Sequence record: PV357172.2
Origin: a phage
Length of the DNA stretch: 64,000 bases
Strand: one strand, 5' to 3'
Below the pieces are notes generated by a model that was not told the origin of the DNA, did no database searches, and saw only the letters and a program-made list of their open reading frames with translations. Of the stretch, positions 34,851 to 54,322 are shown piece by piece (position 1 is the first letter of the stretch; each line of letters begins with the position of its first letter). The position numbers and the translations under genes are program-made.

Positions 34851-34851
34851 T

Positions 34852-35064: not shown

Positions 35065-35066
35065 TT

Positions 35067-35825: not shown

Positions 35826-35935
35826 CCCTGTATATTTATACAGTGGAATAACCTGTGGATAAGTCTGTGTAAAAGTGCTGTAAAGCCTTCCTATTGTGTC
35901 AATCAAATTTACAAAATGTATAAACCTGTGGATAA
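35826..35935. repeat. right arm of inverted repeat carrying DnaA boxes
   Basis: Reverse complement of the left arm: CTGTATATTTATACAG palindrome and TGTGGATAA twice (35854, 35927). Confidence 0.7.
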
Positions 35936-36126
35936 CTTAAATGATAGTGGTTCTCACTAACTAATTTATACAGTTATTATATAACAAAATATAGTTAGTT
36001 GGCTAATAGGATTTTAAAGTGATTATGAGTCTGCTAAGTAAACCTGAAAAACTCATTAGGTAGTCTGCTAATGATTTTGATATAATATAATAGAGATTAA
36101 ACTAATAACATAAGGAAACAATAACA

Positions 36127-36645
36127 ATGGGTCTATTTAAAGATATAGATTATTCGCTTGCTAATGATAACTTTTATTATGATGAAACATCCCCATCATT
36201 TCTAAGATGGAAAGTACAGAAAGGTAATAGTAAGGTGGGGGATATTGCAGGGCATTATAGTAACACAGGTTACTATCGAGTAAAGTTAGCAGGCGAACAA
36301 TACGCAGTGCATAGAATAATATGGGTATTATTTAATGGTGAGATTGATAGCAATCTAACAATCGATCATAATGATCGTAACCGTGCTAATAATAACATTA
36401 ATAATCTTCGCTTAGTAGATCATAAGCAGAATACGAATAACAAGAAAGATTATAAGCGTGCTAATAAGTTGCCTAAGCATATCTATTATAATGGTTCTAG
36501 AGTTGATAATAACGGAAGAAACTATTTGCGCGCTATAGTTAAAGATCCTACTAGTAACAAAAGTGTTAGTAAATCAGGTTATGATTTACAAGAGTTATTA
36601 TTATGGGTAGAAACTAAAAAAGCTGAATTTGGGATTGTCAATTAA
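36127..36645 (+). CDS. HNH homing endonuclease
   Basis: HRIIWVLFNGEIDSNLTIDHNDRN...NNLRLVDHKQN HNH motif. Confidence 0.8.
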   Translation: MGLFKDIDYSLANDNFYYDETSPSFLRWKVQKGNSKVGDIAGHYSNTGYYRVKLAGEQYAVHRIIWVLFNGEIDSNLTIDHNDRNRANNNINNLRLVDHKQNTNNKKDYKRANKLPKHIYYNGSRVDNNGRNYLRAIVKDPTSNKSVSKSGYDLQELLLWVETKKAEFGIVN

Positions 36646-37033
36646 TTTATTTTATAAATTAACGCAATGCCACTTGATTTTAAAAAGTCAATACCTTTTC
36701 CAACTATTTTTCAATTTTGCTTTTGTTAAATATTTGTTAAATCGAAAATGGGCCGCCTAAAACGCCCTAGAAAGCGGTAAAATTTTCAGGTATGCCATTG
36801 CATTGCCTACCCTCGTTTATCGCTACCACGAGCTTTCTAGATTTTGTCAATATCCCCAAAGCAAATATAAATGAAAAAATTACTTGCCTATCTGCTTGGT
36901 TTTATGGTATTCACGCGCCCGTTCCTTTTAATTTAGGTGAGCGCCGCACGCCGTCCGGTGAAACTGTATTAGCCATATTGCTAATAATTTTGGTATAATA
37001 TAATAACCAAATGAAACTAATAGGAGAATATTA

Positions 37034-37375
37034 ATGATTGAGCTAACAAAAGATATTGATTTAGAAACTGTGCTAGATAATCTTTACTATGATGAAACTA
37101 GTCCCAGTTGCCTACGGTGGAAAGTATCCCGCCCCGGTTGCGCCCTTCATGGGGTAGCAGGTACTAAAAGAAAGGATGGTTACTGGTCTGTACAGCTCAA
37201 TAAAGAGCGTTACCTAGCGCATCGTATCGTGTGGTTATTATTTAATTATAAAATAGATAGCAAACTAGTAATTGATCATATTGATCGTAACCCTAGTAAT
37301 AATTTTATTGATAACTTACGGTTAGTAACTCAAGCCGAAAACAACCAAAATAAGGGAGGCTATAGAAAGGCGTAA
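37034..37375 (+). CDS. HNH homing endonuclease (short paralog)
   Basis: HRIVWLLFNYKIDSKLVIDHIDRN...DNLRLVTQAEN; upstream leader similar to that of 36127. Confidence 0.75.
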   Translation: MIELTKDIDLETVLDNLYYDETSPSCLRWKVSRPGCALHGVAGTKRKDGYWSVQLNKERYLAHRIVWLLFNYKIDSKLVIDHIDRNPSNNFIDNLRLVTQAENNQNKGGYRKA

Positions 37376-37616
37376 AACTTACGTTTCTTTACAAAAATAA
37401 GGTTGCGCCCTTTTCGGGAATCTCCTATTATTTATCACGTAGGGCGGCAATGACGAACTACACGGCGGGAAGTTTACCGCCGCGCTCTTTAAAAATTGGG
37501 TACATCTTAAAGCCTATCGGCGGTAAACTTATTCATTATAAGGAATCGACGATATGAAACAAACTTTATTGATCACTGGCAAGCCTAGCAAGGCACTAGA
37601 TAGCAAAACAAAAAAT

Positions 37617-37650
37617 TTGTTGACAGTAGCGCAAAATTCTGTAAAATGGC
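37617..37650 (+). promoter_or_regulatory. near-consensus sigma70 promoter (TTGACA, about 17 bp, TAAAAT)
   Basis: Lies inside track ORF 37554-37757, which I regard as non-coding; a second TTGACA-type promoter sits at about 37745-37775. Confidence 0.5.
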
Positions 37651-37986
37651 GATTCAAGCAATATTTGCAAGGTCGCCAGCAAGGTTTAGAAATGATCTGG
37701 CGAAACATTATGATTGACCTGAAGGAAAATCATAAAAAATCTCAAAAAATTGTTTGACAGCCTAGCCGATAGGTTTTAAGATGTACCCAGTTCGAAAAGA
37801 GCGATAACTTGATAAAATTTGACGGTCGGCACTTACCATAATGTGCCCCGCCCCCTAACGGGATATAGCGGCCTACGTGGAGTTCTTTAAATTGATTATA
37901 TTGGCGAGCGGATTGTTACTTATTACCTGCTGTTACTTTCTAGCAGGTAATGCGGAACAATCCCCAAATAACTAGGAGTTTATATT

Positions 37987-38238
37987 ATGAAAAACGTTAT
38001 TACCGCGCCTAAAATTGGTCAATCCGTTTTCATCCCTTTCGTTACTAAAACGGATGAATTAACCGGAAAAGCCGAGCGCATCAAAGGCGCAGCGCTTATG
38101 CCATTTGATACAATCGACGCGGTATACGCTGAAACGGAACGAAGTAACAACGGAAAAACTATTTACAGCGTTCGGGTTAAATCCGGCGACGTTGTAAAGG
38201 TTGTTCAACGCAACGAAAAATGGGAAGCTGTATTGTAA
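37987..38238 (+). CDS. hypothetical pre-early-region protein (83 aa)
   Basis: AGGAG SD; followed by hairpin ATCCCCC...GGGGGAT. Confidence 0.5.
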   Translation: MKNVITAPKIGQSVFIPFVTKTDELTGKAERIKGAALMPFDTIDAVYAETERSNNGKTIYSVRVKSGDVVKVVQRNEKWEAVL

Positions 38239-38336
38239 TTTAGTGTTAACTTTATATCCCCCAGTAGTTCGGGGGATATAACGATTAACATTATGTTAAT
38301 CTAATCCCTTAAATTAAACTAATAGGAGTTTTTACC

Positions 38337-38744
38337 ATGACTAACGCAAAAACCGCAAAATTCGCATGGAATGAAGAAAACACTCAGAAAGCTGTTACCA
38401 TGTACCAGCAGTTAATCAACGAAAACGGTTTAGATTTTGCAAATAGCGACGGCCTGAAAGAGATTGCAAAAGCAGTAGGCGCGGCTTCTCCTGTGTCTGT
38501 TCGCTCAAAATTGACCAGTGCAAAAGCCTATCAAAAAAGCGATAAGCCGCGTAAAGTTGGCGGCGGTAGTTCAATCCGTAAAGCGCATTATGTGCGAGTA
38601 ATTGCAAAACACGCTATCGATTCCGGCATTATCAAAGACGCCGATGATCTGGCAAGCCTTGAAAGTGCTAAACTGGAAACGCTGGACGCAGTAGCGCAAC
38701 TGTTAGGCGTTGCCGATGAAGTAAAACAGGCCGCAGGTGAATAA
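38337..38744 (+). CDS. hypothetical pre-early-region protein (135 aa)
   Basis: AGGAG SD; followed by hairpin GCCCCCT...AGGGGGC. Confidence 0.5.
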   Translation: MTNAKTAKFAWNEENTQKAVTMYQQLINENGLDFANSDGLKEIAKAVGAASPVSVRSKLTSAKAYQKSDKPRKVGGGSSIRKAHYVRVIAKHAIDSGIIKDADDLASLESAKLETLDAVAQLLGVADEVKQAAGE

Positions 38745-38832
38745 TTATATACCTTGCCCCCTTTAGTGAGGGGGCAATAATATAACTGTTTAGCGATAGT
38801 TGTTATCTTCCCTTAAATCAGGAGTTTTAAAA

Positions 38833-39030
38833 ATGATTTTCTTTCCTACTGAGTCATTAATTTTAGGCTTGTTTATTATGGCGGCCTCGTTATTGTTCGC
38901 TTATTTTCAAAATGATTTAGATTCATATTATTTTAAACGTAAATCTAAATTAGCAAAACGTTTAGGTCTGCTTTGTTTTATCGCTGCCGTTGCTTGTGGT
39001 GTTAGTTCTAGCCTAGTGCCTTTAAATTAA
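38833..39030 (+). CDS. small membrane protein
   Basis: ATG 38833 after AGGAG; hydrophobic. Confidence 0.45.
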   Translation: MIFFPTESLILGLFIMAASLLFAYFQNDLDSYYFKRKSKLAKRLGLLCFIAAVACGVSSSLVPLN

Positions 39031-39120
39031 TGTTGCAAATTATAACGCCTATTGTTCGAGGCGTTATATTTGGCAATATTGCCGTTATTAACCTAATCCC
39101 TTTAATGGAGCTTTATTACT

Positions 39121-40791
39121 ATGATTATTTCCGCAGAAAAACAAACCGTTATCCTGAAAATGGCCGCTGACTTTAATTTCTATGGTAAACGTCTGCGCGC
39201 TACTAAACTGGAGGTCTGCGACGATATATCAAAAGCAGTCTACGATACAACGAAACATTCCACCGCCATTTGTGATTGGCTGGAAGCAAACAAACCAGCG
39301 AAACCAAAAGCGGCAAAAGTAGCAAAAGCCATTAAAAACGATGAGCGCCCCGAAGCGGCGGGGATTGTTTCTAGCACGGTTGAACAGTGGGAAGTAAAAC
39401 AGGGTAAACGCTTTATTATTACGTCGATTCAGAATAATACTTTCCCGCATAAAAACTTTTTAGCCTCGCTTGAACAATTTGCTAAATATATCGGCGCTGA
39501 TTTGCTTGTTTCTAAGTATATTTATAATAAAAACGGTTTTCAAAATGGCGAGGGCGCGGATGGAATAAAGTATGATTCCGCGTTCGATAAATATATTTGC
39601 AGCAAAAACGTGTTTTTACATAACCGCCGTTTTGCTTTCATGGCTGAAATTAATGTTTTGCCAACCGCAGATTATCCGCTTTCTGGATTCGCAGAAACTG
39701 CTACCGCGCTCAATATTGAAGGGCTGGCAATTGGTCACGCTAAAATTACCGCCGAAAGCGTGCCAGCTTTAAAAGGTGAAGTAGTGCGCCGTATGTATTC
39801 AACCGGAACGGCAACGCTCAAAAACTACATTCAGCAGAAAGCAGGACAAAAGGCCGAGGCGCTGCATAACTTCGGTGCGCTTATTGTTGAGTTCGATGAT
39901 GATGGGGAATTTTTTGTTCGCCAGCTTGAAACAATGGACGAAAGCGGGGTGTTTTATGATCTGAATGTTTGCGCTACTCCTGCCGGATGCTATGAAACAT
40001 CGGGGCATGTTTTAGGCTTGCAGTATGGCGATATTCACGCCGAAAAATTAGATGAGGAGTGCGCCGCCGCATCTTGGGGGCATGGTGATACCTATGGGCT
40101 AGTAGATATTCTTAAACCAAAATATCAGTTTGTGCATGACGTGCATGATTTTACATCGCGCAATCATCATAACCGCGCATCCGGTGTATTCCTAGCGAAA
40201 CAGTATGCCGCCGGACGTGATAAAGTTCTGGATGATCTTATCGATACCGGTCGCGTGCTGGAATCAATGGAACGTGATTTTAGTCAAACAATCATTGTTG
40301 AATCGAATCACGATTTGGCGCTATCCCGTTGGCTTGATGATCGTAATGCTAACATTAAGGACGATCCCGCCAACGCCGAACTATATCACCGCCTGAATGC
40401 TGCGATTTACGGAGCTATTGCAGAAAAAGACGACACCTTCAACGTGCTAGATTATGCGCTGCGCAAGGTTGCAGGTTGTGAATTTAACGCCATTTTCCTA
40501 ACGACTGACCAATCTTTCAAGATTGCAGGTATTGAATGCGGCGTACACGGTCACAATGGCATTAACGGGAGCCGTGGCAATCCGAAACAATTTAAGAAAT
40601 TGGGCAAATTAAACACCGGACACACTCATACCGCCAGCATTTACGGCGGCGTTTATACCGCTGGCGTGGCTGGTAGTCTGGATATGGGTTACAACGTTGG
40701 CGCGTCAAGCTGGACACAAACGCATTTAATTACCTATGCAAACGGTCAACGCACTTTGATTGACTTTAAAAACGGTAAATTCTTTGCGTAA
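39121..40791 (+). CDS. A1: A1-like pre-early protein, Mre11/SbcD-type metallophosphatase nuclease (556 aa)
   Basis: Metallophosphatase motifs GDIHA, ESNHD, GHNG and GHTHT; length equals T5 A1 as I recall it. Confidence 0.65.
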   Translation: MIISAEKQTVILKMAADFNFYGKRLRATKLEVCDDISKAVYDTTKHSTAICDWLEANKPAKPKAAKVAKAIKNDERPEAAGIVSSTVEQWEVKQGKRFIITSIQNNTFPHKNFLASLEQFAKYIGADLLVSKYIYNKNGFQNGEGADGIKYDSAFDKYICSKNVFLHNRRFAFMAEINVLPTADYPLSGFAETATALNIEGLAIGHAKITAESVPALKGEVVRRMYSTGTATLKNYIQQKAGQKAEALHNFGALIVEFDDDGEFFVRQLETMDESGVFYDLNVCATPAGCYETSGHVLGLQYGDIHAEKLDEECAAASWGHGDTYGLVDILKPKYQFVHDVHDFTSRNHHNRASGVFLAKQYAAGRDKVLDDLIDTGRVLESMERDFSQTIIVESNHDLALSRWLDDRNANIKDDPANAELYHRLNAAIYGAIAEKDDTFNVLDYALRKVAGCEFNAIFLTTDQSFKIAGIECGVHGHNGINGSRGNPKQFKKLGKLNTGHTHTASIYGGVYTAGVAGSLDMGYNVGASSWTQTHLITYANGQRTLIDFKNGKFFA

Positions 40792-40847
40792 TTAAATTAT
40801 TCCCCTAGCGGCTTGAAATATAGCCGCTATTATAGGAGCTAAATTAA

Positions 40848-41105
40848 ATGAAAGTTACATTACCCAAAACATTGGACGAAAAAGTATTTATTTCACCGGA
40901 TGAAATGGAATCTGATAAAGTTTACAGCTTCGGGCCTATCCTAGCCGCCAAAACTAATACGGATGGTATTATTTCCGTCGATTCCCGTGATAACGATATT
41001 GTTCCTTTTGATGATGATGGCGCTTTTTATGAGTGGCTAAGCGATAATAATTTACCCGTAAACGGTGAATTAACGCCATACCAGATGCAGATTATTATCA
41101 AATAA
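40848..41105 (+). CDS. hypothetical protein (85 aa)
   Basis: Track ORF with AGGAG SD. Confidence 0.5.
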   Translation: MKVTLPKTLDEKVFISPDEMESDKVYSFGPILAAKTNTDGIISVDSRDNDIVPFDDDGAFYEWLSDNNLPVNGELTPYQMQIIIK

Positions 41106-41143
41106 ATTAAATCCATTATTAAACTAATTGGAGTTTTATAAAT

Positions 41144-41536
41144 ATGAAAAAGCAAAATATTCCCTTCGATCGCGCTCAGTCCTCAATTGTTCTGGTTTAT
41201 TCCAACGGCGAACGTTACCACGTCGAGGCTGGACACGTTATTGATGACCTATTAGATTTCAATGACGCTTTGCAGGTTACTACCTTTGCATATACGCAGG
41301 GCAAACTAACCAGCCATATTAAAGCAAAAGGCGTTTATGTTGACACGGTGAAACAAGAAACGATTATCATCGACGCCGTAAAATCCGGCCTAGCCTTTGC
41401 AGTTGTCGCGCCTTGCCTCGCTTGCCTTGATGATCAATTGATTAGTGCAAAGGTCTACACATGTGCGGGGATTCGTTCTAGCGTATCCGGTGAGGATGTT
41501 AGTTTTATCGCTGATGCGTTGGCTTATGGTCTTTAA
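41144..41536 (+). CDS. A2 candidate (130 aa)
   Basis: Size and position next to the A1-like gene only. Confidence 0.35.
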   Translation: MKKQNIPFDRAQSSIVLVYSNGERYHVEAGHVIDDLLDFNDALQVTTFAYTQGKLTSHIKAKGVYVDTVKQETIIIDAVKSGLAFAVVAPCLACLDDQLISAKVYTCAGIRSSVSGEDVSFIADALAYGL

Positions 41537-41616
41537 TAGTTGATTTATTATTGCCCGCTTATAAATAGCGGGTAATGCTGAATTAATCTAATCCCTTAAA
41601 TGGAGAACGTAACAAA

Positions 41617-42351
41617 ATGAATCAAGTTAAAACGAATATTACCCGTAATTTCCCGCATATTTCCCGCGTCATGATTTGGGATCTTGATGGCACTATCGTT
41701 AATTCATTCCATCGTGTCGCGCCTTGCTTTGATAGCGACGGGAATTTAAATTTAAATAAGTATAAAAATGAGGCTTGCAAACATGATTTAATAATGCAAG
41801 ATACTTTATTGCCTTTGGTGGAATATATGCGCCAATGCATGAATGACGCAAATACTTTAAACATTATTTGCACCGCTCGACTGATGAGCAAATCAGACTA
41901 TTATTATTTGCGTAAACAAGGATTGCGCGGGCGTGGTGATAGTAATATCCGTGTATTTTCCCGCGATACACTGCATAAATATTTTGAGGCTGATAAGGTT
42001 AGCGAAATATACCACAGCAAAGACGCAGTTTATAAATCGTATTATTTTGAGCTATTCAAACAACTATATCCGAACGCTGATTTTACAATGATTGATGATC
42101 ATAAAGGTGTATTATCAGCGGCAGCGTCATACGGATTTAAAACGCTGGACGCGCAAGCCGTTAATGATATTCTATCAATCGGCGTGGCATTGATAGGCGG
42201 AACCTTTATTGATGAATCTCTCGATGATGATAATGATTATCAGTTCCTAGCGGACCGATTGAAATTATGTTGGGAAAGTATGACCGAGGAAGAACGCGCA
42301 GAATATAGTTGCAGCCCGCAACAATATATTGAGAAATTAAAAGTTGCGTAA
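41617..42351 (+). CDS. dmp: HAD-superfamily phosphatase, Dmp-like 5'-deoxyribonucleotidase (244 aa)
   Basis: HAD motif I DLDGT and motif IV IDDH; same length as T5 Dmp as I recall it. Confidence 0.6.
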   Translation: MNQVKTNITRNFPHISRVMIWDLDGTIVNSFHRVAPCFDSDGNLNLNKYKNEACKHDLIMQDTLLPLVEYMRQCMNDANTLNIICTARLMSKSDYYYLRKQGLRGRGDSNIRVFSRDTLHKYFEADKVSEIYHSKDAVYKSYYFELFKQLYPNADFTMIDDHKGVLSAAASYGFKTLDAQAVNDILSIGVALIGGTFIDESLDDDNDYQFLADRLKLCWESMTEEERAEYSCSPQQYIEKLKVA

Positions 42352-42513
42352 TAATTAAAGTTGAAATAGTCACGGTGTGTAATGATAACATGCCGTGACT
42401 ATTAGCTTGCTAAGTACCGGGCGGTAATGAGACTCATTCTCATCTGGGGGGCCACTGCACCCACCCACGCGTACGTAATCCAAAGAATTTGGCAAAAGTC
42501 ATTTTAGTGCTAA

Positions 42514-43053
42514 TTAACTGTTTAATTGGGCAACGTCTGGTATACTTCCTTTGAACATCTCCTGTATTGCAAAGTCACCATGAAATGTCCTTCTTAGTAA
42601 ATTTGCATAATTTACGGCATCTTCTAATCCGCTATAGGGAAAGTACTTAGTAGTACCCCTTATCAGCCCCTGTTTATCATGTAATCTTACCATCCACTTC
42701 TGAAGTTCTTTATGCCATGTAACATTTAGATAGCCTGATGATGCTCTTGAGATTCTGCCATTATGATTATTCTCTGTAATTGAAGCCTCTCTTAAATTTG
42801 ACCATCTATTATTTAGTTTATTCCTATCTATGTGGTCTACACATTCCTCTGGCCATCTATTCTCCATAATAACAAAAGCTACTTGATGTGCATAAGCTTT
42901 AAACCCTCGATACTTAAGCTGCCTATATCCCCTATTTAAAGTACCTGCTTCTTTACCCTTACGATTGCCTCTTTTCCAGGTAAAAACTCCGGTTTCGGGA
43001 TCATAAGCAAATACTTCTTGTATTTCCTGTATGTTTAAATTATTCTTCATCAC
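42514..43053 (-). CDS. HNH homing endonuclease
   Basis: HQVAFVIMENRWPEECVDHIDRNKLNNRWSNLRE HNH motif. Confidence 0.75.
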   Translation of the reverse strand: MMKNNLNIQEIQEVFAYDPETGVFTWKRGNRKGKEAGTLNRGYRQLKYRGFKAYAHQVAFVIMENRWPEECVDHIDRNKLNNRWSNLREASITENNHNGRISRASSGYLNVTWHKELQKWMVRLHDKQGLIRGTTKYFPYSGLEDAVNYANLLRRTFHGDFAIQEMFKGSIPDVAQLNS

Positions 43054-43285
43054 TCACCTTTGCCCGAAATCTCTTCCGCGACGCCCGAGATCCATCCGAC
43101 CACTCCCGCTCAAACTCCGCACGTTTCTCGTCAAACTTCCGCTCCCTTTCCGCAATCTTCCGCTCCCTTTCCGCAATCTCCCGCGATACTTCCGCAGTAT
43201 ACTTACGATGCTTGTTAATAGCCGCAGTCATTCCGAAAACTCCCGCAAGTACCCCGATAATAAAAGCAATTATAATACTAAACAT
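43040..43285 (-). CDS. small membrane protein with charged repeat tail (81 aa)
   Basis: N-terminal TM helix then IAERERK repeated, encoded by a 21-bp tandem DNA repeat (about 43140-43185). Confidence 0.5.
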   Translation of the reverse strand: MFSIIIAFIIGVLAGVFGMTAAINKHRKYTAEVSREIAERERKIAERERKFDEKRAEFEREWSDGSRASRKRFRAKVSDEE

Positions 43286-43472
43286 CTAATTCCCTCTCAA
43301 TTTGCAGAATACGGGTACTATCACAACGTTGGAGTTCTACTAATTTTTCTAGAGCAAATTGTTGTTGTTTTACCTGAGCTTCTAGAGTTTTTAGGCGAAC
43401 ATACGCGTTATAAGAAACAATGAAAGTTGCCCAGACTAGTATTACTATTAGTGTAGCTACTACTTCCATCAT
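43278..43472 (-). CDS. TM plus coiled-coil small protein (64 aa), paralog family
   Basis: ATGATG start overlaps the upstream stop. Confidence 0.5.
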   Translation of the reverse strand: MMEVVATLIVILVWATFIVSYNAYVRLKTLEAQVKQQQFALEKLVELQRCDSTRILQIERELDV

Positions 43473-43576
43473 TTACGTTTCTCCGTTAGTAAAGTTTCAA
43501 TTCTAGCTAAGTGATTATCTAAAATACATTGCCCAATAATCATAATTCCCAGTAATGAAATAATTACCCATTCCAT
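43469..43576 (-). CDS. TM plus coiled-coil mini-protein (35 aa), paralog
   Basis: MEWVII...ARIETLLTEKRK, same N- and C-terminal signatures as the 61-aa neighbour; below track cutoff. Confidence 0.4.
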   Translation of the reverse strand: MEWVIISLLGIMIIGQCILDNHLARIETLLTEKRK

Positions 43577-43761
43577 TATTTACGCTCCTCTAATAAAGTT
43601 TCAATTCTAGATAACCTATTACTCAACTGCATTAATTTAACCTCTACTTGGGTTACAGAGGTATCTATTACACGTAAGCCTACAAAGAGAAGTATCAGTA
43701 GGATGAATATGCCAATAATTACCCATTCCATTAAATCCACCCCGCCATAGCTGCTAACCAA
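43576..43761 (-). CDS. TM plus coiled-coil small protein (61 aa), paralog
   Basis: ...MEWVIIGIFILLILL...RIETLLEERK. Confidence 0.5.
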   Translation of the reverse strand: MVSSYGGVDLMEWVIIGIFILLILLFVGLRVIDTSVTQVEVKLMQLSNRLSRIETLLEERK

Positions 43762-43922
43762 AAACCTACGAAGATTAGGAATAATACAAAACCAAATCCG
43801 TAAATATTAATCCACGCTTCGTACACTTCTCCGCGTCTGTTCTTTCTTTTGTTTGACATATCTTTCCTGCTCCTATAAATATAGTATTTGGAATATTTTA
43901 TAATTTGCGCATAGCCAACCAT
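43731..43922 (-). CDS. small protein with C-terminal TM helix (63 aa)
   Basis: Basic N-terminus, hydrophobic C-terminus; first gene of the minus-strand array. Confidence 0.45.
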   Translation of the reverse strand: MVGYAQIIKYSKYYIYRSRKDMSNKRKNRRGEVYEAWINIYGFGFVLFLIFVGFWLAAMAGWI

Positions 43923-44035
43923 GCTCGTGATTTCCTAGAAGGGCTTTTCACTTTCTTGCATAGTGTTTTCTGCTAGTACACCATCCAAGAAATAAAAAAT
44001 TTAGTTTACTTGGATGTCTTTTTGCTTTATACTAA

Positions 44036-44302
44036 TTACAAGTAATTAGATTGCTCTAGTTTAAATTTACAATCACCATATTTAAGGTCAAACTGACTGA
44101 GATCCCACCATCCAAACTTAGTACGGAGCTGTACTACTGGAAAGCGATCTCCCTTAATACGAACTTTTTGAACCTTGAGACCGTAATGTTCTTCTCCCTC
44201 ACCACCAAAAGATTTTACAAATCCAGTACAAAATGGTTTGGGAGCAGGTGCACAACCAGATAACATAACTGCGGCAACTAGTGTAATCACAAACTTTTTC
44301 AT
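44036..44302 (-). CDS. llp: Llp-like lipoprotein (receptor-blocking candidate)
   Basis: Signal peptide with lipobox LSGC; divergent from the RBP gene as llp is from oad in T5. Confidence 0.6.
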   Translation of the reverse strand: MKKFVITLVAAVMLSGCAPAPKPFCTGFVKSFGGEGEEHYGLKVQKVRIKGDRFPVVQLRTKFGWWDLSQFDLKYGDCKFKLEQSNYL

Positions 44303-44387
44303 ATTTATCTCTCCATTTCTAATTTATGAATATATTATAGCAAAATAGAGAGATGAAAGCAAATACATTTTTATAATAGGAGATTAT

Positions 44388-46145
44388 ATGGGTTTTTTCG
44401 CTGGAAAATATAGCGATGGTAAGACCGTACTATCTTTAAATACTGAATCTGGTGGTGACATTAATCGTCACTATAGTCCAAATACCAATAGTATTTTTCA
44501 TAGTGATATGCCATTTGTCCTAGTTGATGGTACTTATGAGTCTGGGTTAGGTGATGCCGGTAATGGGTTTTTTGTATGTCAGATGCCCTCTGACATAATA
44601 AATATTAAATCCAATGACCCCGGTAGAGTTATATTAACTGCTATTGAGATTAATGGTACTCACAGAGCTTTTCTTAATGGTACTCAGAGTAAGGTGGGTC
44701 AAACTATAGTTGCCACTCAAGCAGATCCTTTTAGATCTTTTGCTAGTGTTTCCCAGACTAGTGGATTTGCATTTGGTAATAGCCTGGCATCTGGTACATA
44801 TAACTATAATCCATCTATAGGGCATGAAGAATCTATTTCTAGGAATGGTACAGGGGGTACTACCTTACATAGTACGTATCATGGTATAGTTAGGCCGGGT
44901 GCAGGAGCTCCAGTAGGTATTACTGTTGCAGAAGCTTTTGCACAGTTAGGATTCCCTACTAATAGTAGTACAGTACCTATAGATGGTAATAACCAATATT
45001 ACTGGGACCCAGGATGGATGTCTCCTTTAGGATCAGCACACAGAGGGCACGATTGGTTTTATGTTTGTAACTCTAACATACGTGGGTATGGTGGGGTAAG
45101 ACAAGGTCTTCCTGGTAATGTAAATACTATGTATCATGATGGAGGTAACAGATTTGTTTGTAGGGGGTCTACAACTAATTTAGCTAACCAATCTGGTAAC
45201 GCTACAATATTACAGGATTGGTATAACATAACCCCTACTAAAGTTATTTGGTATGTTCTGAATTTAAGATACTCAAATGGTGGTATGAGTATCTCTGGTA
45301 ATCCTTTTACTGGTTCAGATATTCTTATATCTCCTTCTAATTTCATAATTAAAGGGGTTAGTCTTCCCAATACTGGATACAAGTTTATTAACCAGAACGC
45401 TTTTGGTAACTTAGGTTATAGACCAGATATGGAGTATATAGGAAATAACGCAGCGTATACCGGGGTTTTTGGGGATACCACGGCAAGGTGTGAACTTGTA
45501 GGATCTAGTAATGGGGGTTTGTGGTCTCCTGTAGATTATGGAGGGGCTAAATCTCAAATTAGTATTTATAAATTCGGAGCTGGTAAGCAATGGTATGTAA
45601 ACTCTAGGGATAATACTATCGGTAATGAACACGGGGTTGTTTGGGGACCATCAGCAGTTCCATTACGACTTTTTGGTGGAAATGTAGGTAGCTCTTACAT
45701 GGGGGATGATATTACTCCCAGCTACCCGGGAACAGGGGATAGATACGTTGGTTTATCAACTATTGGGCTAGGTATACCGGGTGGCAATGCTACAGTAATT
45801 CTTACCACTGAAGTTATATCAGGTAACCTTAACTGTGCAGGTGTTCCTGCTAATACATGGAATAACGGTGTGTTTCAAGTGCAAGGAAGAAGAGCATATA
45901 GCTATAGTAATGGAGATGCAATATTCCACCAGATTTTAACATTACCAGTAGGGTATTTAGTACCTTTTCATACTACATCTGCTTTTAGATACACACCTAA
46001 CAATGCCCTAAGTAGAAATAGTTTTATATACACTGCTAAAAATCTGGGGAATGGAAATGTAGAGTTAGGGGTAGTTATGCACGTAAGTTTAGGTAGTGCA
46101 GTTTTCCTACCGAGATTAAGAGTAACAGTTCAACGCCTTACCTAA
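44388..46145 (+). CDS. receptor-binding protein, pb5-like (585 aa)
   Basis: N-terminus [17 protein letters not shown]...SGGDINRH...IFHSDM resembles T5 pb5 as I recall it; position upstream of terminase. Confidence 0.6.
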
Positions 46146-46155
46146 AGGAGGAAAT

Positions 46156-46638
46156 ATGGCAAATGATGTATTAGTACCAGATCTTATGTCCCCTGAAGGG
46201 ATGGATGTAATTGAAGCATATTTACAGTGTGGGAGTGATGTGCCTTCTGCCGCACGTAGTCTTGGAATGTCCGAAATTGCTTTTAGAGATATTATGAATC
46301 GTAGTGAAGTTAAGAACTACTTAAATGATATTTTTATGGAGAGTGGTTTCCGTAACAGAGATCGTTTATTTGGTGTTCTGGATGAAGTTATCAAGCGTAA
46401 ACTAGAGGAACTAGAAGAAACTGGCATGGGTTCTGACCAAGATATTATGGATATTCTCTGGAAAGCACATAAAATGAAAATGGAAGAAATGAAAATGATG
46501 GTAGAACTGGAGAAAGTTAAGGCAGCAGCCCGTACTCCAGCTAACCAGACCAACATCCAGAATAATATTATTGCTGGAGCTGGGGATCAAAACTACATGG
46601 ACTTAATTACTTCCCTAGCTACTGGAGGTAAGAAGTAA
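46156..46638 (+). CDS. terminase small subunit (160 aa)
   Basis: Directly upstream of and overlapping the large terminase gene. Confidence 0.55.
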
Positions 46639-47954
46639 TGGAAGTATCAAGACCTTACGTTAATACAGTAGATGTTATTGATTTCGGAATAGATAAACGT
46701 TTCTTTCGTCTACCTGTTTCGGGAATACTAGCACAAGAAGGTATTACACCTAATGGTCCTCAAATAGCGATTATTAATGCTCTAGAGGATCCTAGACATC
46801 GTTTTGTAACGGCGTGTGTATCACGCCGTGTAGGTAAATCCTTCATCGCATATACTCTTGGGTTCCTAAAATTGCTGGAACCTAATGTGAAGGTGTTAGT
46901 AGTTGCTCCTAACTATTCACTGGCCAACATCGGATGGTCTCAGATTCGTGGTCTTATTAAAAAATATGGCCTACAAACTGAACGTGAGAACGCTAAAGAT
47001 AAGGAAATTGAGTTAGCTAATGGTTCTCTGTTTAAACTAGCTTCCGCTGCTCAGGCTGACTCCGCAGTTGGACGTTCATATGATTTTATCATCTTTGACG
47101 AGGCGGCAATTTCCGATGTGGGTGGTGATGCCTTCAGGGTTCAGCTGCGTCCTACCCTAGATAAACCTAATTCTAAGGCTCTATTTATTTCCACCCCTCG
47201 TGGAGGTAACTGGTTTAAAGAGTTTTACGCCTACGGATTTGATGATACGTTGCCTAACTGGGTATCTATTCATGGTACATATCGTGATAACCCTCGTGCT
47301 GACCTGAATGATATAGAAGAAGCACGTCGTACGGTTAGTAAAAACTACTTCCGCCAGGAATATGAAGCTGACTTCTCTGTATTTGAAGGTCAGATTTTTG
47401 ATACTTTCAATGCTATTGACCATGTTAAAGACCTTAAGGGTATGCGTCATTTCTTTAAAGATGATGAAGCATTCGAAACGTTGCTTGGTATCGACGTTGG
47501 TTATCGTGATCCTACAGCAGTTCTTACTATTAAGTATCATTACGATACGGATACTTACTATGTATTAGAAGAGTACCAGCAGGCGGAGAAAACTACAGCT
47601 CAGCATGCTGCTTACATTCAGCACTGTATAGATCGTTATAAAGTTGATCGTATTTTTGTTGACTCCGCGGCAGCTCAGTTCCGTCAAGACTTAGCTTATG
47701 AGCATGAAATTGCATCAGCTCCAGCTAAAAAATCTGTCCTAGATGGCCTAGCATGCCTGCAAGCACTGTTCCAACAGGGTAAGATTATTGTAGATGCCTC
47801 ATGCTCCTCCTTAATTCATGCACTGCAGAACTATAAGTGGGATTTCCAAGAAGGTGAAGAAAAATTATCCCGTGAAAAACCACGTCATGATGCTAACTCT
47901 CACCTTTGTGATGCGCTGCGCTACGGAATTTACTCTATTTCCCGTGGTAAATAA
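46638..47954 (+). CDS. terminase large subunit (438 aa)
   Basis: Walker A-like VSRRVGKS and Walker B FIIFDEAA, with a C-terminal nuclease-type domain. Confidence 0.8.
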   Translation: MEVSRPYVNTVDVIDFGIDKRFFRLPVSGILAQEGITPNGPQIAIINALEDPRHRFVTACVSRRVGKSFIAYTLGFLKLLEPNVKVLVVAPNYSLANIGWSQIRGLIKKYGLQTERENAKDKEIELANGSLFKLASAAQADSAVGRSYDFIIFDEAAISDVGGDAFRVQLRPTLDKPNSKALFISTPRGGNWFKEFYAYGFDDTLPNWVSIHGTYRDNPRADLNDIEEARRTVSKNYFRQEYEADFSVFEGQIFDTFNAIDHVKDLKGMRHFFKDDEAFETLLGIDVGYRDPTAVLTIKYHYDTDTYYVLEEYQQAEKTTAQHAAYIQHCIDRYKVDRIFVDSAAAQFRQDLAYEHEIASAPAKKSVLDGLACLQALFQQGKIIVDASCSSLIHALQNYKWDFQEGEEKLSREKPRHDANSHLCDALRYGIYSISRGK

Positions 47955-48125
47955 ATAAGTATAGGATGGGATACTACTCAGTTGGTATCCCATTCCTGCA
48001 TTTTAAAATCCCCTTTACAAATTCGATATGATTATGTATACTATATTCATTGATCGGGAGAACTTCTCCCATAATAGAACGTAAACAAGAAAAATTAATG
48101 CTCTACATGAGGTGTAGGAGATTCT

Positions 48126-48764
48126 ATGGGTCGACAAAAGCTAACAATAAAAGATATAAATACTAGATTAGCTGATCGTGGAATCCAAATTGTCGGTGAA
48201 TATGTAAACCAGCGTACAAAAACAGTATTTAGATGCCAGAGAGCACACGTTTGGGAAGCAACACCACATTCTGTACTTCATATGAGGAGAGGTTGTCCAC
48301 ACTGCTCCAATAATACAATATCGTTAGATGAAGTTAGTAACAGAATATCTAATATAGGGTATACTCTGTTAAGCAGCTATACTAATGCTAAAACAAAACT
48401 ACATCTACGTTGCAATAATGGGCATGACTGTTTCATTACCCTAGATGGATTGACTCAAGGTAAAAGATGTCCTTATTGTTCTCTTAAATGGGAAAATGGC
48501 GGATTCCTCTATATCATGTCCTCCTGCAGAGGTACTAAAGTAGGCATAAGCTTATACCCTGAGAAGCGGCTGAACGAGGTTAAAAGAGAATCTGGATTTT
48601 CTGACATATACTTGTTCACCGTGTATTATCTGCCGGATAGAGAGACTGCTTTAGATTTAGAGAAGGAAGTTCACAGAAAATATTATAATAAAAACTGTGG
48701 GTTTTCTAATTTTACAGGAAGTACGGAATTTTTTAATGTTGCTCCTGAAGATGCTTTCAAATAG
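48126..48764 (+). CDS. T5orf172/GIY-YIG-like homing endonuclease with zinc-ribbon N-terminus
   Basis: CPHC and CPYC pairs then GGFLYIMSS...KVGIS...KRLNEV...TEFFNV. Confidence 0.6.
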   Translation: MGRQKLTIKDINTRLADRGIQIVGEYVNQRTKTVFRCQRAHVWEATPHSVLHMRRGCPHCSNNTISLDEVSNRISNIGYTLLSSYTNAKTKLHLRCNNGHDCFITLDGLTQGKRCPYCSLKWENGGFLYIMSSCRGTKVGISLYPEKRLNEVKRESGFSDIYLFTVYYLPDRETALDLEKEVHRKYYNKNCGFSNFTGSTEFFNVAPEDAFK

Positions 48765-48990
48765 GGAAGCATTCTACAAGAAATATGAGCATGAGTTAGT
48801 TAGGGACGTGGTAACATTGTGCCAGCACCATCACCAATTATTACATAAGGTTTACACAAAAGAACCTCCTTTATTTTCTGCTAATAAGCAAAAAGTGTGG
48901 GTTCAAAAGCAGAAAGACAAATTACAGAATCCTCAAGAAAAGACACAAGTCAAGACTGAAACAAAATCAGGATTCGCAAGGTTCTTATAA
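48697..48990 (+). CDS. hypothetical small ORF; possible frame-shifted C-terminal remnant of the endonuclease
   Basis: Overlaps the endonuclease 3' end in another frame; contains LCQHHHQLLH. Confidence 0.3.
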   Translation: MGFLILQEVRNFLMLLLKMLSNREAFYKKYEHELVRDVVTLCQHHHQLLHKVYTKEPPLFSANKQKVWVQKQKDKLQNPQEKTQVKTETKSGFARFL

Positions 48991-50090
48991 TGGGTTTTAA
49001 AAGCTGGATTACTGAAAAGCTAAATCCGGGTCAACGTATTATAAGAGACATGGAACCAGTTAGTCATCGCACTAACCGTAAGCCTTTTACCACTGGACAA
49101 GCCTACAGTAAAATTGAGATTCTCAATAGAACTGCTAATATGGTTATAGATAGTGCGGCGGAGTGTTCTTATACTACTCTCTTAAATGTACGACCTAATC
49201 CATTCATGGATATAAGCACATTCCGTAGACTTGTAGTCACTGACCTACTTTTTGAAGGTTGTGCATACATCTATTGGGATGGCACATCGCTTTACCATGT
49301 CCCTGCTGCACTGATGCAAGTAGAGGCAGATGCCAATAAGTTTATCAAAAAATTTATATTTAATAACCAGATAGACTATCGCGTAGATGAGATTATCTTT
49401 ATAAAAGATAACAGTTACGTGTGTGGCACAAATTCTCAAATTTCTGGACAATCTCGCGTTGCTACTGTTATTGACTCTCTTGAGAAGCGTTCTAAGATGC
49501 TTAACTTTAAAGAGAAATTCCTCGATAACGGAACTGTGATTGGTCTTATTCTTGAGACGGATGAAATCCTGAACAAGAAATTGCGTGAGCGTAAACAAGA
49601 AGAATTACAACTAGATTATAATCCTAGTACTGGTCAGTCCTCTGTCCTGATAGACTTTAAGGAAGACATCGAAGGATTTAATAAATCCATCTGTCTAGCC
49701 TTTGGTGTTCCGCAAGTGCTACTTGATGGCGGTAATAATGCGAACATTCGACCAAACATCGAATTGTTCTACTATATGACTATCATTCCTATGCTGAACA
49801 AGCTGACTAGTTCTCTTACTTTCTTTTTTGGTTATAAGATTACTCCTAATACTAAGGAAGTAGCTGCATTAACACCAGATAAAGAAGCTGAGGCTAAACA
49901 TTTAACCTCATTGGTTAATAATGGTATTATGACTGGTAACGAGGCTCGTTTAGAGCTGAACCTTGAACCTTTAGATGATGAGCAGATGAATAAGATTCGT
50001 ATTCCTGCTAACGTTGCTGGTTCTGCAACAGGTGTATCTGGTCAAGAAGGTGGTAGACCTCAAGGTTCCACCGAGGGAGATAAAGAATGA
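48990..50090 (+). CDS. portal protein (366 aa)
   Basis: Position between terminase and prohead protease. Confidence 0.65.
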   Translation: MGFKSWITEKLNPGQRIIRDMEPVSHRTNRKPFTTGQAYSKIEILNRTANMVIDSAAECSYTTLLNVRPNPFMDISTFRRLVVTDLLFEGCAYIYWDGTSLYHVPAALMQVEADANKFIKKFIFNNQIDYRVDEIIFIKDNSYVCGTNSQISGQSRVATVIDSLEKRSKMLNFKEKFLDNGTVIGLILETDEILNKKLRERKQEELQLDYNPSTGQSSVLIDFKEDIEGFNKSICLAFGVPQVLLDGGNNANIRPNIELFYYMTIIPMLNKLTSSLTFFFGYKITPNTKEVAALTPDKEAEAKHLTSLVNNGIMTGNEARLELNLEPLDDEQMNKIRIPANVAGSATGVSGQEGGRPQGSTEGDKE

Positions 50091-50581
50091 TTGATTATAA
50101 TGGTCTAAAGACCATTTTTGGTGAAAAACTGCCAGAATCTCATATCTTCTTTGCTACGGTTGCTGCGCATAAATATGTTCCTAGCTATGCTTTTCTGCGT
50201 AGAGAACTAGGGCTTTCATCTGCGCATACTAACCGTAAAGTATGGAAGAAATTTGTAGAGGCTTATGGTGAAGCAGTTCCTCCGGCCCCACCGGCCCCAC
50301 CATTAACTCTTTCTAAAGATTTAACTGCTAGCATGTCAGTTGAAGAGGGAGCAGCATTAACACTTTCTGTTACTGCAACTGGTGGTACTGGTCCATATAC
50401 TTATGCATGGACTAAAGATGGTTCTCCTATTCCGGATGCTTCAGGAGCTACCTATACTAAACCTACAGCAGCAGCTGAGGATGCCGGCTCTTATAAAGTA
50501 ACTGTAACAGATAGTAAGCAAGTAAGTAAGGATTCTACTGCATGTGCTGTGACAGTTAATCCTACTGTTCCTGGAGGCTAA
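50087..50581 (+). CDS. capsid decoration protein with C-terminal Ig-like domain (164 aa)
   Basis: PPAPPAPP linker then Ig-like beta-rich domain; same length as T5 pb10 as I recall it. Confidence 0.55.
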   Translation: MIDYNGLKTIFGEKLPESHIFFATVAAHKYVPSYAFLRRELGLSSAHTNRKVWKKFVEAYGEAVPPAPPAPPLTLSKDLTASMSVEEGAALTLSVTATGGTGPYTYAWTKDGSPIPDASGATYTKPTAAAEDAGSYKVTVTDSKQVSKDSTACAVTVNPTVPGG

Positions 50582-50584
50582 TAA

Positions 50585-51217
50585 ATGACACAAGCTGCTA
50601 TTGACTATAACAAGTTAAAATCAGCACCCGTTCATTTAGATGCTTATATTAAATCTATTGATAGCGAATCCAAAGAGGGCGTTGTAAAAATCCGTGGATT
50701 CGCTAATACAATTAGTAAAGATCGCGCTGGTGATGTAATTCCTGCTTCTGCGTGGAAAACATCTAATGCACTTGCTAACTATATGAAAAACCCGATTATT
50801 CTTTTCGGACACGATCATCGTCGTCCAATCGGCAAGTGTATTGATCTTAACCCTACTGAAATGGGTCTCGAAATCGAATGCGAGATCTATGAAAGTTCTG
50901 ACCCGGCTATCTTTTCTCTAATTAAAAACGGTGTACTGAAAACTTTTAGTATCGGATTCCGCTGCCTAGATGCAGAGTGGGATGAAGCTACTGATATATT
51001 TATTATTAAAGATTTAGAACTATACGAAGTTTCGGTAGTTTCTGTACCTTGTAATCAGGACTCAACGTTCAATCTCGCTAAGAGTATGAATGGTCATGAT
51101 TATACTGAATGGCGTAAATCTTTTACTGCAATAAGTTCTAAAGCTGTCCCAGCTCAAGAACGTAATCTTTCTGAACTAGAAAAACTTGCGATAGCTTTAG
51201 GCTACGTTAAAGAATAA
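50585..51217 (+). CDS. prohead protease (210 aa)
   Basis: Immediately upstream of the capsid gene; length matches T5 pb11 as I recall it. Confidence 0.6.
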   Translation: MTQAAIDYNKLKSAPVHLDAYIKSIDSESKEGVVKIRGFANTISKDRAGDVIPASAWKTSNALANYMKNPIILFGHDHRRPIGKCIDLNPTEMGLEIECEIYESSDPAIFSLIKNGVLKTFSIGFRCLDAEWDEATDIFIIKDLELYEVSVVSVPCNQDSTFNLAKSMNGHDYTEWRKSFTAISSKAVPAQERNLSELEKLAIALGYVKE

Positions 51218-51234
51218 CGGAGAATTATTTAAAA

Positions 51235-52468
51235 ATGACTATTGATATTAATAAGCTGAAAGAAGAACTTGGTCTGGGTGATCTGGCTAAATCTCTGGAA
51301 GGTCTGACCGCTGCTCAGAAAGCTCAGGAAGCTGAACGTATGCGTAAAGAGCAGGAAGAAAAAGAACTGGCTCGTATGAATGACTTGGTTTCTAAAGCAG
51401 TTGGCGAAGATCGTCAGAAACTGGAACAAGCTCTGGAACTGGTTAAGTCCCTGGATGAAAAATCTAAGAAGAGCGCAGAACTGTTTGCACAGACTGTAGA
51501 AAAGCAGCAGGAAACTATTGTTGGTCTCCAGGACGAAATCAAATCTCTGCTGGCAGCTCGTGAAGGGCGTTCCTTCGTCGGTGATAGTGTGGCTAAAGCA
51601 CTGTACGGTACTCAAGAAAACTTTGAAGACGAAGTGGAGAAACTGGTTCTTCTGTCCTACGTGATGGAAAAAGGTGTATTTGATACCGAACATGGTCAGA
51701 GACACTTGAAAGCTGTAAACCAGTCTTCTTCTGTAGAAGTTTCTAGTGAAAGCTATGAAACTATTTTCTCCCAGCGTATCATCCGTGACTGAGGTTAAAG
51801 GTGCTCTGACTGAAATCCACTTCAGTACTTACAAACTGGCTGCTAAGTCCTTCATTACTGATGAAACTGAAGAAGATGCAATCTTCTCCCTGCTGCCGCT
51901 GCTGCGTAAACGTCTGATTGAAGCACACGCTGTTTCTATCGAAGAAGCGTTTATGACTGGTGATGGTACTGGTAAACCTAAAGGTCTATTGACTCTTGCT
52001 AGCGAAGATGGTGCTAAAGTTACTACTGAAGCTAAAGCTGATGGTTCTGTTCTGGTAACTGCTAAGACTATCTCTAAACTGCGTCGTAAACTGGGCCGTC
52101 ATGGTTTGAAACTGTCCAAACTGGTACTGATTGTATCTATGGATGCTTACTACGATCTGCTGGAAGATGAAGAATGGCAGGATGTTGCTCAAGTTGGTAA
52201 TGATGCTGTTAAACTGCAGGGTCAGGTTGGTCGTATTTATGGTCTGCCGGTTGTAGTTTCTGAATACTTCCCAGCTAAAGCGGTTGATAAAGAGTTCGCA
52301 GTTATTGTTTATAAAGATAACTTCGTAATGCCACGTCAGCGTGCTGTTACTGTTGAACGTGAGCGTCAAGCTGGTAAACAGCGTGATGCATACTACGTTA
52401 CTCAGCGTGTTAACCTGCAACGTTACTTTAGTAATGGCGTTGTATCTGGTGCTTACGCTGCATCTTAA
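51235..52468 (+). CDS. major capsid protein precursor, reading frame interrupted by an apparent +1 frameshift
   Basis: Frame 1 (51235-51792) encodes a coiled-coil scaffold-like domain; frame 2 (from 51737) encodes the HK97-fold body with GDGTGKPKGLL; the frames overlap only at 51737-51789. Confidence 0.7.
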
Positions 52469-52489
52469 TACAGGCTTTTCAGCCGATAA

Positions 52490-52512
52490 GGAGAGCTTCG
52501 GCTCTCCTTTTT
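52490..52512 (+). terminator. rho-independent terminator
   Basis: GGAGAGCTTCGGCTCTCC hairpin followed by TTTTTT. Confidence 0.7.
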
Positions 52513-52527
52513 TATTGGGAAAAATAA

Positions 52528-53040
52528 ATGCAAATAATCACAGCTGAAGACTATAGATTATATGGCGGGTTAAAACGACCTGAACTAGAATCTGGAGTAG
52601 AGATGATGATTACTGCTGCCAATGCGCTGATTACTAGCCTTTTAGGTATGGATGATGCTGATGCGGTAGACCAGTTAATCAATACAAAACCTACTCGTAA
52701 AAAATACTTTTTAAGTTCTCCCTCGGCTACTTCAGTAACCAAAATGACTATTAACGACAAGGAGATAGATCCTGAACAGTATAAGTTGTATTCTGATGGG
52801 GTTATACTTCTTAAATTTAACCCTCCAGAAGGTTATATGGACGTAGAATATACACAAGGTGGATTTAATCCAATTCCTGAAGATCTCAAACTTGCAGCAT
52901 GTATGTTAGTAGATCATTGGCACAAACAGGATTATCGCCAAGCTAAAACAATTGGCGGAGAAACAGTTACTTTTAATAATACTAAGTCTGGTATTCCAGA
53001 GCATATTCGTACTATTATTGAAGTTTACAGGAGAGTATAA
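52528..53040 (+). CDS. head completion / head-tail adaptor candidate (170 aa)
   Basis: Position after the capsid gene. Confidence 0.45.
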   Translation: MQIITAEDYRLYGGLKRPELESGVEMMITAANALITSLLGMDDADAVDQLINTKPTRKKYFLSSPSATSVTKMTINDKEIDPEQYKLYSDGVILLKFNPPEGYMDVEYTQGGFNPIPEDLKLAACMLVDHWHKQDYRQAKTIGGETVTFNNTKSGIPEHIRTIIEVYRRV

Positions 53041-53807
53041 TGTCTCTTTCTGATTTAGCTACACAAATTATTAAGGAGCAGCTAGATAATGTTGGGCGTT
53101 CCGAGAACAATAAGAATACTGTTGTATATTCTGTTGAAACAGGACTGAAAGATCCTACTAGAGATGGTACTGTTGCTCAGGTATCTTTTAAATTCTCAAA
53201 ACCTGTATCCCAAGACCTCCTTAATGTTAGGACCGCTTCTATTCTAAAAGCAGTTTCTTCTAGCTTAGATCTAACAGGAGACTTAGGTGCTTTAGAAAGT
53301 CTTATTCAAGCAACCGCCGGTAAAAAATCCTCTGTAGGTAAAAAACGTTCTACTGGTAGAGTTCAAGTAAACTTTGGGGATCCTAGAGATGTAGAAGATG
53401 GATATTCTGGTGCAGTAACAGGTGCTTCTGGTCGTTTTGTATCTAATAGCAATATGAAGGTTATTCTGGAGTTGGTTGCTAAAGAATACTTAATAAAGGA
53501 TATGAAAAAAGCAGGAGCTCCACTTAAATTTAGAACAGGTCGTTTTGCAAATTCTCTGAAAATTAAGGATGTTATGCTTAGAGATGCAGAGACTAGTAAA
53601 GGTGCTCCTGAACTAAACGTGACATATAAGTATATGGTACGTCCATATTCTGTATTTAATCCAGCAGTATCTACATATCGAAGATTATCTCTACGACCTT
53701 ACCCAGGCGCTAGAAACCCCCAAAAACTTATTGGTGAGGCTATAGCAAAAGCTGCAAGAGACCTGATTCACTCTAGATATAAAATCAAGGTTAATCAAGG
53801 AACCTAA
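53040..53807 (+). CDS. head-tail connector / structural protein candidate (255 aa)
   Basis: Position; translationally coupled. Confidence 0.45.
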   Translation: MSLSDLATQIIKEQLDNVGRSENNKNTVVYSVETGLKDPTRDGTVAQVSFKFSKPVSQDLLNVRTASILKAVSSSLDLTGDLGALESLIQATAGKKSSVGKKRSTGRVQVNFGDPRDVEDGYSGAVTGASGRFVSNSNMKVILELVAKEYLIKDMKKAGAPLKFRTGRFANSLKIKDVMLRDAETSKGAPELNVTYKYMVRPYSVFNPAVSTYRRLSLRPYPGARNPQKLIGEAIAKAARDLIHSRYKIKVNQGT

Positions 53808-53810
53808 TAA

Positions 53811-54296
53811 ATGGATCATAGAACAAGTATTGCACAAGCTCTGGTTGACCGTATATCTAAACAGTTGGACGGTTCTCAACCCGACGAATATTTTAATAAC
53901 CTATATGGAAACGTTTCTCGTCAAACTTATAAATTTGAGGAAATACGAGAGTTTCCTTATGTGGCAGTTCATATCGGAACTGAAACTGGGCAGTATCTTC
54001 CTTCGGGCCAACAGTGGATGTTTTTAGAACTTCCAATCCTGGTGTACGATAAAGAGAAAACAGACATTCAAGAGCAACTTGAAAAACTCGTAGCGGATAT
54101 AAAAACCGTTATTGACACAGGTGGAAATTTAGAATATACTGTTAGTAAACCTAATGGATCGACCTTCCCATGTGAGGCAACTGATATGATCATTACATCA
54201 GTTAGTACAGATGAGGGTCTACTGGCCCCATATGGTTTAGCAGAAATAAATGTAACAGTGAGGTATCAGCCTCCACGTAGGTCACTTCGCAGATAA
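53811..54296 (+). CDS. tail completion / tail terminator candidate (161 aa)
   Basis: Immediately upstream of the tail tube gene. Confidence 0.45.
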   Translation: MDHRTSIAQALVDRISKQLDGSQPDEYFNNLYGNVSRQTYKFEEIREFPYVAVHIGTETGQYLPSGQQWMFLELPILVYDKEKTDIQEQLEKLVADIKTVIDTGGNLEYTVSKPNGSTFPCEATDMIITSVSTDEGLLAPYGLAEINVTVRYQPPRRSLRR

Positions 54297-54322
54297 GTTA
54301 CAGATTAGGAGAAAATAATTAA

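Follow-up and report, generated by a model that had tools for sequence, protein, structure and literature searches.

The locus at 44036..46145 of the window (the whole 64,000-nt stretch of phage DNA analysed here) is composed of two divergently oriented genes, a short AT-rich region between them and, immediately downstream, the terminase genes. The features are as follows:

44036..44302, minus strand: llp, an 88-aa ORF (ORF scan), by sequence a BF23-type receptor-blocking outer-membrane lipoprotein (superinfection exclusion or lytic conversion)
44303..44387, no strand: divergent control region of 85 bp, AT-rich with 21% GC (sequence and motif search)
44388..46145, plus strand: gene of a receptor-binding tail-tip protein (RBP) of the pb5/Oad/Hrs family, 585 aa (ORF scan), DaisyDussoix/SP01 subtype of the BtuB clade
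46156..46638, plus strand: terminase small subunit, terS, context gene (phrog_3802, 6.5e-91)
46638..47954, plus strand: terminase large subunit, terL, context gene (Pfam Terminase_6N, 9.4e-15, and Terminase_6C, 2.9e-11)

The initial annotation had described an 88-aa lipoprotein gene divergent from a gene encoding a 585-aa protein, and this was borne out by the ORF scan and by the presence of an LPAM_1 lipobox. Both ORFs are real genes and not chance ORFs, since RBP homologues occur in 541 phage records and lipoprotein homologues in 402. The RBP gene is located directly upstream of terS, which marks its conserved position, and the same order and layout are found in BF23, DT571/2 and T5. Divergence of llp and the RBP gene is kept in all homologues inspected (BF23, DaisyDussoix, DT571/2, Cit2 and T5), where the pair either precedes the terminase genes or lies at the record's end. 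The sign of the GC skew flips at the intergenic region, which fits divergent transcription, and the RBP gene is co-oriented with the late structural genes. The window is DNA of a T5-like phage (Tequintavirus-like, Demerecviridae). Together, llp, the divergent RBP gene and the downstream terS and terL support the assignment of 44036..46145 as a host-recognition and lytic-conversion module of the T5/BF23 type, a module already characterised and very common among deposited T5-like phages. The lytic-conversion arrangement proposed initially is thus supported, both by this layout and by the identity of the lipoprotein to that of BF23 at 86 of 88 positions.

Several features surrounding the module were also recorded. 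A 179-aa HNH homing endonuclease ORF (42514..43053, minus strand; Pfam HNH_3, 7.5e-12) is located between dmp (41617..42351) and small membrane-protein ORFs, at a site which is the terminal-repeat boundary in BF23 and DT571/2. BF23, DaisyDussoix and DT571/2 lack this ORF (2-19% identity in the corresponding bins); SHSML-45, HildyBeyeler and others carry it at 94-96% identity, annotated there as a homing endonuclease. At 43040..43922, the llp strand carries several small ORFs (43731..43922, phrog_8596; 43576..43761, phrog_6369; 43278..43472; 43040..43285) that correspond in position to the single-transmembrane proteins T5.159-162. Around 43588..43787, identity to BF23 and DT571/2 falls to 32-34% while DaisyDussoix stays at 96%. 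A second mobile endonuclease is probably encoded just downstream of terL by a 212-aa ORF (48126..48764, plus strand), in which T5orf172/MUG113 (GIY-YIG-like) and treble-clef zinc-finger/CapR domains were detected; different nuclease genes are found in this region of T5 and BF23. At a greater distance, within 1..42400, come a 19-gene tRNA cluster (4053..15020) and early genes, then the first-step-transfer genes, with A1 probably at 39121..40791, and finally dmp. These lead directly into the late region (llp, RBP, terminase), so that the terminal repeat appears once, as in a collapsed, circularly permuted T5-like assembly. Over 36000..60000, the window is mosaic, and even the nearest deposited genomes reach only about 90-93% identity.

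The control region between the two genes carries signals for both orientations. A default promoter/terminator consensus scan found no promoter in this region, because the -35 hexamer matches the consensus at only 3 of 6 positions. When the criteria were relaxed, a conserved extended -10 element emerged on the minus strand (TTGCTT at 44362..44357, a 17-nt spacer and TGC-TATAAT with the -10 hexamer at 44339..44334), a candidate llp promoter as judged by its match to the consensus. Shine-Dalgarno sequences are present for llp (GGAGAG, 44314..44309) and for the RBP gene (AGGAG, 44378..44382, 6 nt before the ATG). The region is nearly identical in BF23, DaisyDussoix, DT571/2 and Cit2, and divergent promoters are annotated at the corresponding place in the T5 and BF23 records.

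The 585-aa product matches over its full length (residues 1-585) the PHROG profile phrog_4815, 'receptor binding tail protein' (2.8e-274). A PDB sequence search returned T5 pb5 only (chains 8b14_B and 8a8c_B, 640 and 646 aa; E=2e-50), and the match was split into two stretches, residues 1-141 and 270-531. In a global alignment with the 640-aa pb5 of NC_005859, 201 identities were obtained over 661 alignment columns (30.4%), the window protein being 55 aa shorter. It had been suggested initially that the N-terminus resembles pb5 in a protein that is different from, and shorter than, the approximately 640-aa T5 protein, and these figures agree with each part of that description; the sequence search proposed as a check shows that the RBP is not near-identical to pb5.

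To place the RBP among its relatives, 50,697 phage records were surveyed by tblastn. Among the 541 records with a homologue, identity was at least 99% in 4, 95-99% in 98 and 90-95% in 3, giving 105 deposited phage genomes with an RBP at least 90% identical (best 99.1%). The closest proteins are those of IME178 and PK7/PK8 (99.1%), SP01 and SSP1 (98.8%), ECOP18 (98.6%), T5_ev212 (98.3%) and DaisyDussoix, also named Bas31 (573 of 585 residues, 97.9%). A next tier includes DT571/2 (73.7%), Epseptimavirus-type phages (about 67-72%, EPS7 at 69.4%) and BF23 (66.9%), followed by Yersinia phage phiR2-01 (55.5%), the T5 and Klebsiella types (about 28-31%) and the FepA-type S124 (28%). By sequence, the RBP clusters with those of BtuB-dependent phages and not with the FhuA or FepA types; it appears as a common subtype of the BtuB clade and not as a new variant. 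Nor is the pair unusual, with a near-identical RBP encoded in more than 100 deposited genomes. Hosts written in the records with this RBP type are Escherichia, Salmonella, Shigella and Citrobacter.

Assignment of the RBP to the BtuB clade was made because it is 97.9% identical to the RBP of a phage reported as BtuB-dependent. The terminal receptor of Bas31 (Escherichia phage DaisyDussoix) is listed as BtuB in the BASEL S5 Table, and according to that study the receptors of all its phages were found experimentally on single-gene mutants. The BASEL paper further describes three clusters of Markadamsvirinae RBPs (BtuB, FepA and FhuA), in which the cluster predicts the receptor. BF23, DT57C/DT571/2, EPS7 and phiR2-01 are also BtuB phages (PMC4728585; PMC10644984), and the RBP of DT571/2 is identical to that of DT57C. 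As judged by these relationships, the receptor of the window phage is almost certainly BtuB. The initial annotation expected a receptor other than FhuA, for which the BtuB-clade position and the 30% identity to pb5 give support; of the two receptors named as examples, BtuB was retained and FepA was not, the S124 RBP being only 28% identical.

We then considered the lipoprotein. The Llp precursor starts with MKKFVITLVAAVMLSG followed by C, a signal peptide ending in the lipobox LSGC with Cys17 (Pfam LPAM_1 at E=6e-5, a score exceeding the curated cut-off). Position +2 is occupied by Ala and not Asp, which is compatible with outer-membrane sorting, the destination predicted for Llp by the established +2 rule. 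Two further cysteines are present, Cys25 and Cys78 in precursor numbering (9 and 62 in the mature protein), and they parallel the Cys11-Cys58 disulphide of T5 Llp (PMC9586334), making a disulphide putative in the window protein. Llp shares 86 of 88 residues (97.7%) with BF23 Llp and differs from it by A7T (signal peptide) and A35E (mature part), and the same count and the same two differences are found with DaisyDussoix Llp. Identity is 85/88 (96.6%) with DT571/2 and 98.9% with ECOP18, and Cit2 Llp is identical to BF23 Llp at 88/88 positions. Among the 402 phage records with an Llp homologue, 176 are at 95-99% and 213 at 60-80%, the latter including Epseptimavirus GreteKellenberger. The llp genes of DT57C and DT571/2 are reported to be identical, and with the cloned DT57C gene the plating of DT57C-type phages and of BF23 reportedly fell more than 100-fold, T5 being unaffected (PMC4728585). 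BF23 Llp blocks BtuB (Mondigler 2006, as cited in PMC4728585). The similarity to these proteins supports the assignment of the 88-aa gene as a BF23-type Llp which would block BtuB.

The relationship between this lipoprotein and T5 Llp is more distant. Pairwise, only 20 identities are found over 90 alignment columns, and the mature parts match by BLASTP with E=0.009; T5 Llp is too diverged for phmmer to retrieve it from the window sequence. A Pfam scan up to E=10 returned only the lipid-attachment site, and a PDB sequence search with Llp gave no meaningful match (best hits ovomucoid and cellulase, E around 0.5). At the profile level, full-length Llp matches phrog_1119, 'Cor superinfection exclusion protein' (2.2e-26), as do its 72-aa mature part alone (2.6e-16, profile positions 17-78) and mature T5 Llp alone (1.4e-11), in a profile which may itself include window-type and T5 Llp sequences. 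BF23-type and T5-type Llp are called 'non-homologous' in the literature; this holds pairwise, whereas at the profile level both belong to one Llp/Cor family. In addition, the mature part of BF23-type Llp shares with that of the T5 llp product (locus L004, 10430..10663) two extra cysteine positions and a KGD-F-V...W stretch. The common phrog_1119 match and these two shared features suggest a distant common ancestry rather than independent invention.

Comparison at the DNA level revealed that llp and the RBP gene have different histories of divergence. In 200-nt bins, identity to BF23 is 96-98% across llp, drops to 53-80% inside the RBP gene and rises to 88-96% in terS/terL, and the same pattern, a diverged RBP gene beside a conserved llp, is observed with DT571/2. 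With DaisyDussoix, identity is 91-98% over most of the module and reads 82% in the final bin, at the end of its record. Because identity breaks at the edges of the RBP gene, these profiles indicate that this gene has been exchanged as a cassette by recombination next to a conserved llp, as already described for DT57C by Golomidova et al. 2016 (PMC4728585). The same Llp adjoins at least three diverged RBP subtypes. Since Llp is 95-99% identical (176 records) across RBP subtypes that are only 67-74% identical to each other, it tracks the receptor and not a particular RBP. A 'co-evolved lipoprotein' had been proposed: the match to the receptor stands, but not one to the RBP, Llp being near-invariant across the RBP subtypes.

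Within the RBP, divergence is unevenly distributed. The N-terminal 90 residues are 76-86% identical to BF23 Hrs, and the lowest identities in 30-residue bins occur at 91-120 (53%), 151-180 and 181-210 (33-36%), 241-270 (46%) and 481-510 (53%). In the FhuA-pb5 structure, pb5 inserts the loops L1 (tip Gln115), L2 (tip Phe170) and L4 (570-590) into the receptor (PMC9586334). L1 and L2 align to window residues 99-129 and 155-182, within variable stretches, and L4 to residues 530-542, which are shortened relative to T5. Most of the 55-residue difference in length is explained in the alignment by the T5-specific insertions 170-177, 258-272, 282-291, 562-573 and 581-587. This distribution fits the idea that the receptor-contact loops would be the variable parts of the RBP.

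The following mechanism is proposed. The 585-aa protein would act as a monomeric RBP at the tip of the straight central tail fibre and would bind irreversibly to the TonB-dependent vitamin B12 transporter BtuB, leading to DNA ejection. After infection, and presumably early, llp would be expressed from the sigma-70-type promoter; its product would be exported, lipidated at Cys17 and, as predicted, sorted to the outer membrane. There, Llp would bind BtuB and leave it unable to bind the RBP, with the effect that superinfecting BtuB-dependent phages would be excluded and the progeny spared inactivation on debris of lysed cells. By analogy with the T5 FhuA-Llp complex (PMC9586334), the block is probably allosteric: Llp would sit at the periplasmic face, jam the plug, bind a non-native plug conformation and fold the extracellular loops inward. 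A literature search found no BtuB-Llp or BtuB-RBP structure, and the periplasmic mechanism is extrapolated from FhuA. For T5, the AF2 model of Llp was inaccurate and the receptor loops of pb5 were predicted with low confidence (PMC9586334). We consider this explanation as a whole, a BtuB-binding RBP with a BtuB-blocking Llp, to be very likely; gene identities and arrangement were computed here, and BtuB dependence and exclusion are drawn from the literature on relatives. In a further, rather unlikely extension, this RBP subtype would contact BtuB differently from BF23 Hrs, or would tolerate BtuB orthologues of several genera or a second transporter, with the same Llp blocking all subtypes. If so, the change induced in BtuB by Llp would be a general block, independent of the mode of RBP binding.

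Three other readings of the locus were weighed against BtuB recognition coupled to a BtuB-blocking lipoprotein. In the first, this RBP subtype would have drifted towards a different TonB-dependent transporter (FepA or some other) or would need a second receptor besides BtuB, Llp then being only partly protective. The poorly matching bins (33-53% identity to BF23 Hrs), the alignment of the T5 contact loops L1 and L2 within them and the range of host genera in the records would be in line with such a drift. Nevertheless, the near-identical DaisyDussoix needs BtuB on E. coli K-12, and DT57C, whose RBP is similarly diverged from that of BF23, uses BtuB and is excluded by the same Llp (PMC4728585), while the low identity of the S124 RBP argues specifically against FepA. 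Moreover, an almost invariant BtuB-type Llp is kept beside the RBP in the records inspected (SP01, ECOP18, DaisyDussoix and Cit2), and this retention argues for a functional match between the two proteins. We therefore regard the drift as highly unlikely. It is hardly credible that the 88-aa ORF encodes a generic lipoprotein, or a moron, that has nothing to do with the receptor. In favour of this reading, Pfam recognises only the lipid-attachment site and no PDB chain matches by sequence. Against it stand the identities to BF23 Llp (97.7%) and DT571/2 Llp (96.6%), the blocking reported for the BF23 and DT57C proteins, the phrog_1119 match that its mature part shares with T5 Llp, and its location next to the RBP gene, which does not vary among the related phages inspected.

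Finally, the RBP could bind FhuA as T5 pb5 does, the adjoining BtuB-type Llp being 'decoupled', as was proposed for Cit2. This reading bears directly on the window, since the Cit2 RBP is identical to the window RBP at 569 of 585 positions (97.3%). In PMC12980165, FhuA was deduced as the receptor of Cit2, whose RBP was said to share 96.9% identity with that of T5 and to cluster with T5. The stated value was not reproduced: alignment of the Cit2 RBP with pb5 (NC_005859) gave 203 identities over 664 alignment columns (about 31%). For the window RBP, the 30.4% identity to pb5, the 97.9% identity to the RBP of DaisyDussoix, listed as BtuB-dependent, and the shortened segments on which the pb5 loops L2 and L4 fall in the alignment all speak against FhuA, and its recognition by this protein is most improbable.

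As to Cit2 itself, the FhuA assignment in PMC12980165 was rejected on the basis of the direct comparison with pb5 of NC_005859. For its locus (L005, Citrobacter phage, OP745948.1, 249..2358), the FhuA inference looks like a mix-up of references, and the published figure probably came from a phage merely named 'T5_...', for example T5_ev212.

Taken together, these results point to a phage which is very likely a BtuB-dependent T5-like phage, and the locus has little importance beyond annotation. BtuB dependence would imply cross-exclusion by, and cross-resistance with, BF23-type phages and E colicins, which is useful for cocktail design. The locus is also a further example of the exchange of an RBP cassette beside a conserved receptor-blocking gene, a pattern known from DT57C.

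Among the systems compared, the closest are Escherichia phage DaisyDussoix, Salmonella phage SP01, Shigella phage SSP1 and Escherichia phages ECOP18 and IME178. DNA identity to these over the full 2110-bp module is 96-97.7%, gene order is unchanged, and the RBPs, all of 585 aa, are 97.9-99.1% identical. Relative to DaisyDussoix, the module carries point substitutions only, 12 in the RBP and 2 in Llp, whereas the rest of the window is mosaic with respect to these five phages (about 90-93% DNA identity). The classical BtuB module of BF23 (Mondigler et al. 2006, as cited in PMC4728585 and PMC10644984) has the same arrangement and receptor family, with llp and the flanking terminase genes at 88-98% DNA identity, but its Hrs is of 595 aa instead of 585 and only 66.9% identical. 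DT57C/DT571/2 (PMC4728585) likewise carries a BtuB-type RBP beside a BF23-type Llp, and exclusion by DT57C Llp was shown experimentally; its RBP, 73.7% identical, represents a third subtype. The T5 module (8B14, 8A8C; PMC9586334) shares a homologous RBP fold family (E=2e-50), the gene arrangement, the divergent promoter region and an Llp that is also a small lipoprotein with the lipobox cysteine, two further cysteines and a phrog_1119 match. It differs in its receptor, FhuA and not BtuB, and in having solved pb5 and Llp structures, and the pb5 residues missing from the window RBP in the alignment include parts of the FhuA-inserting loops L2 and L4.
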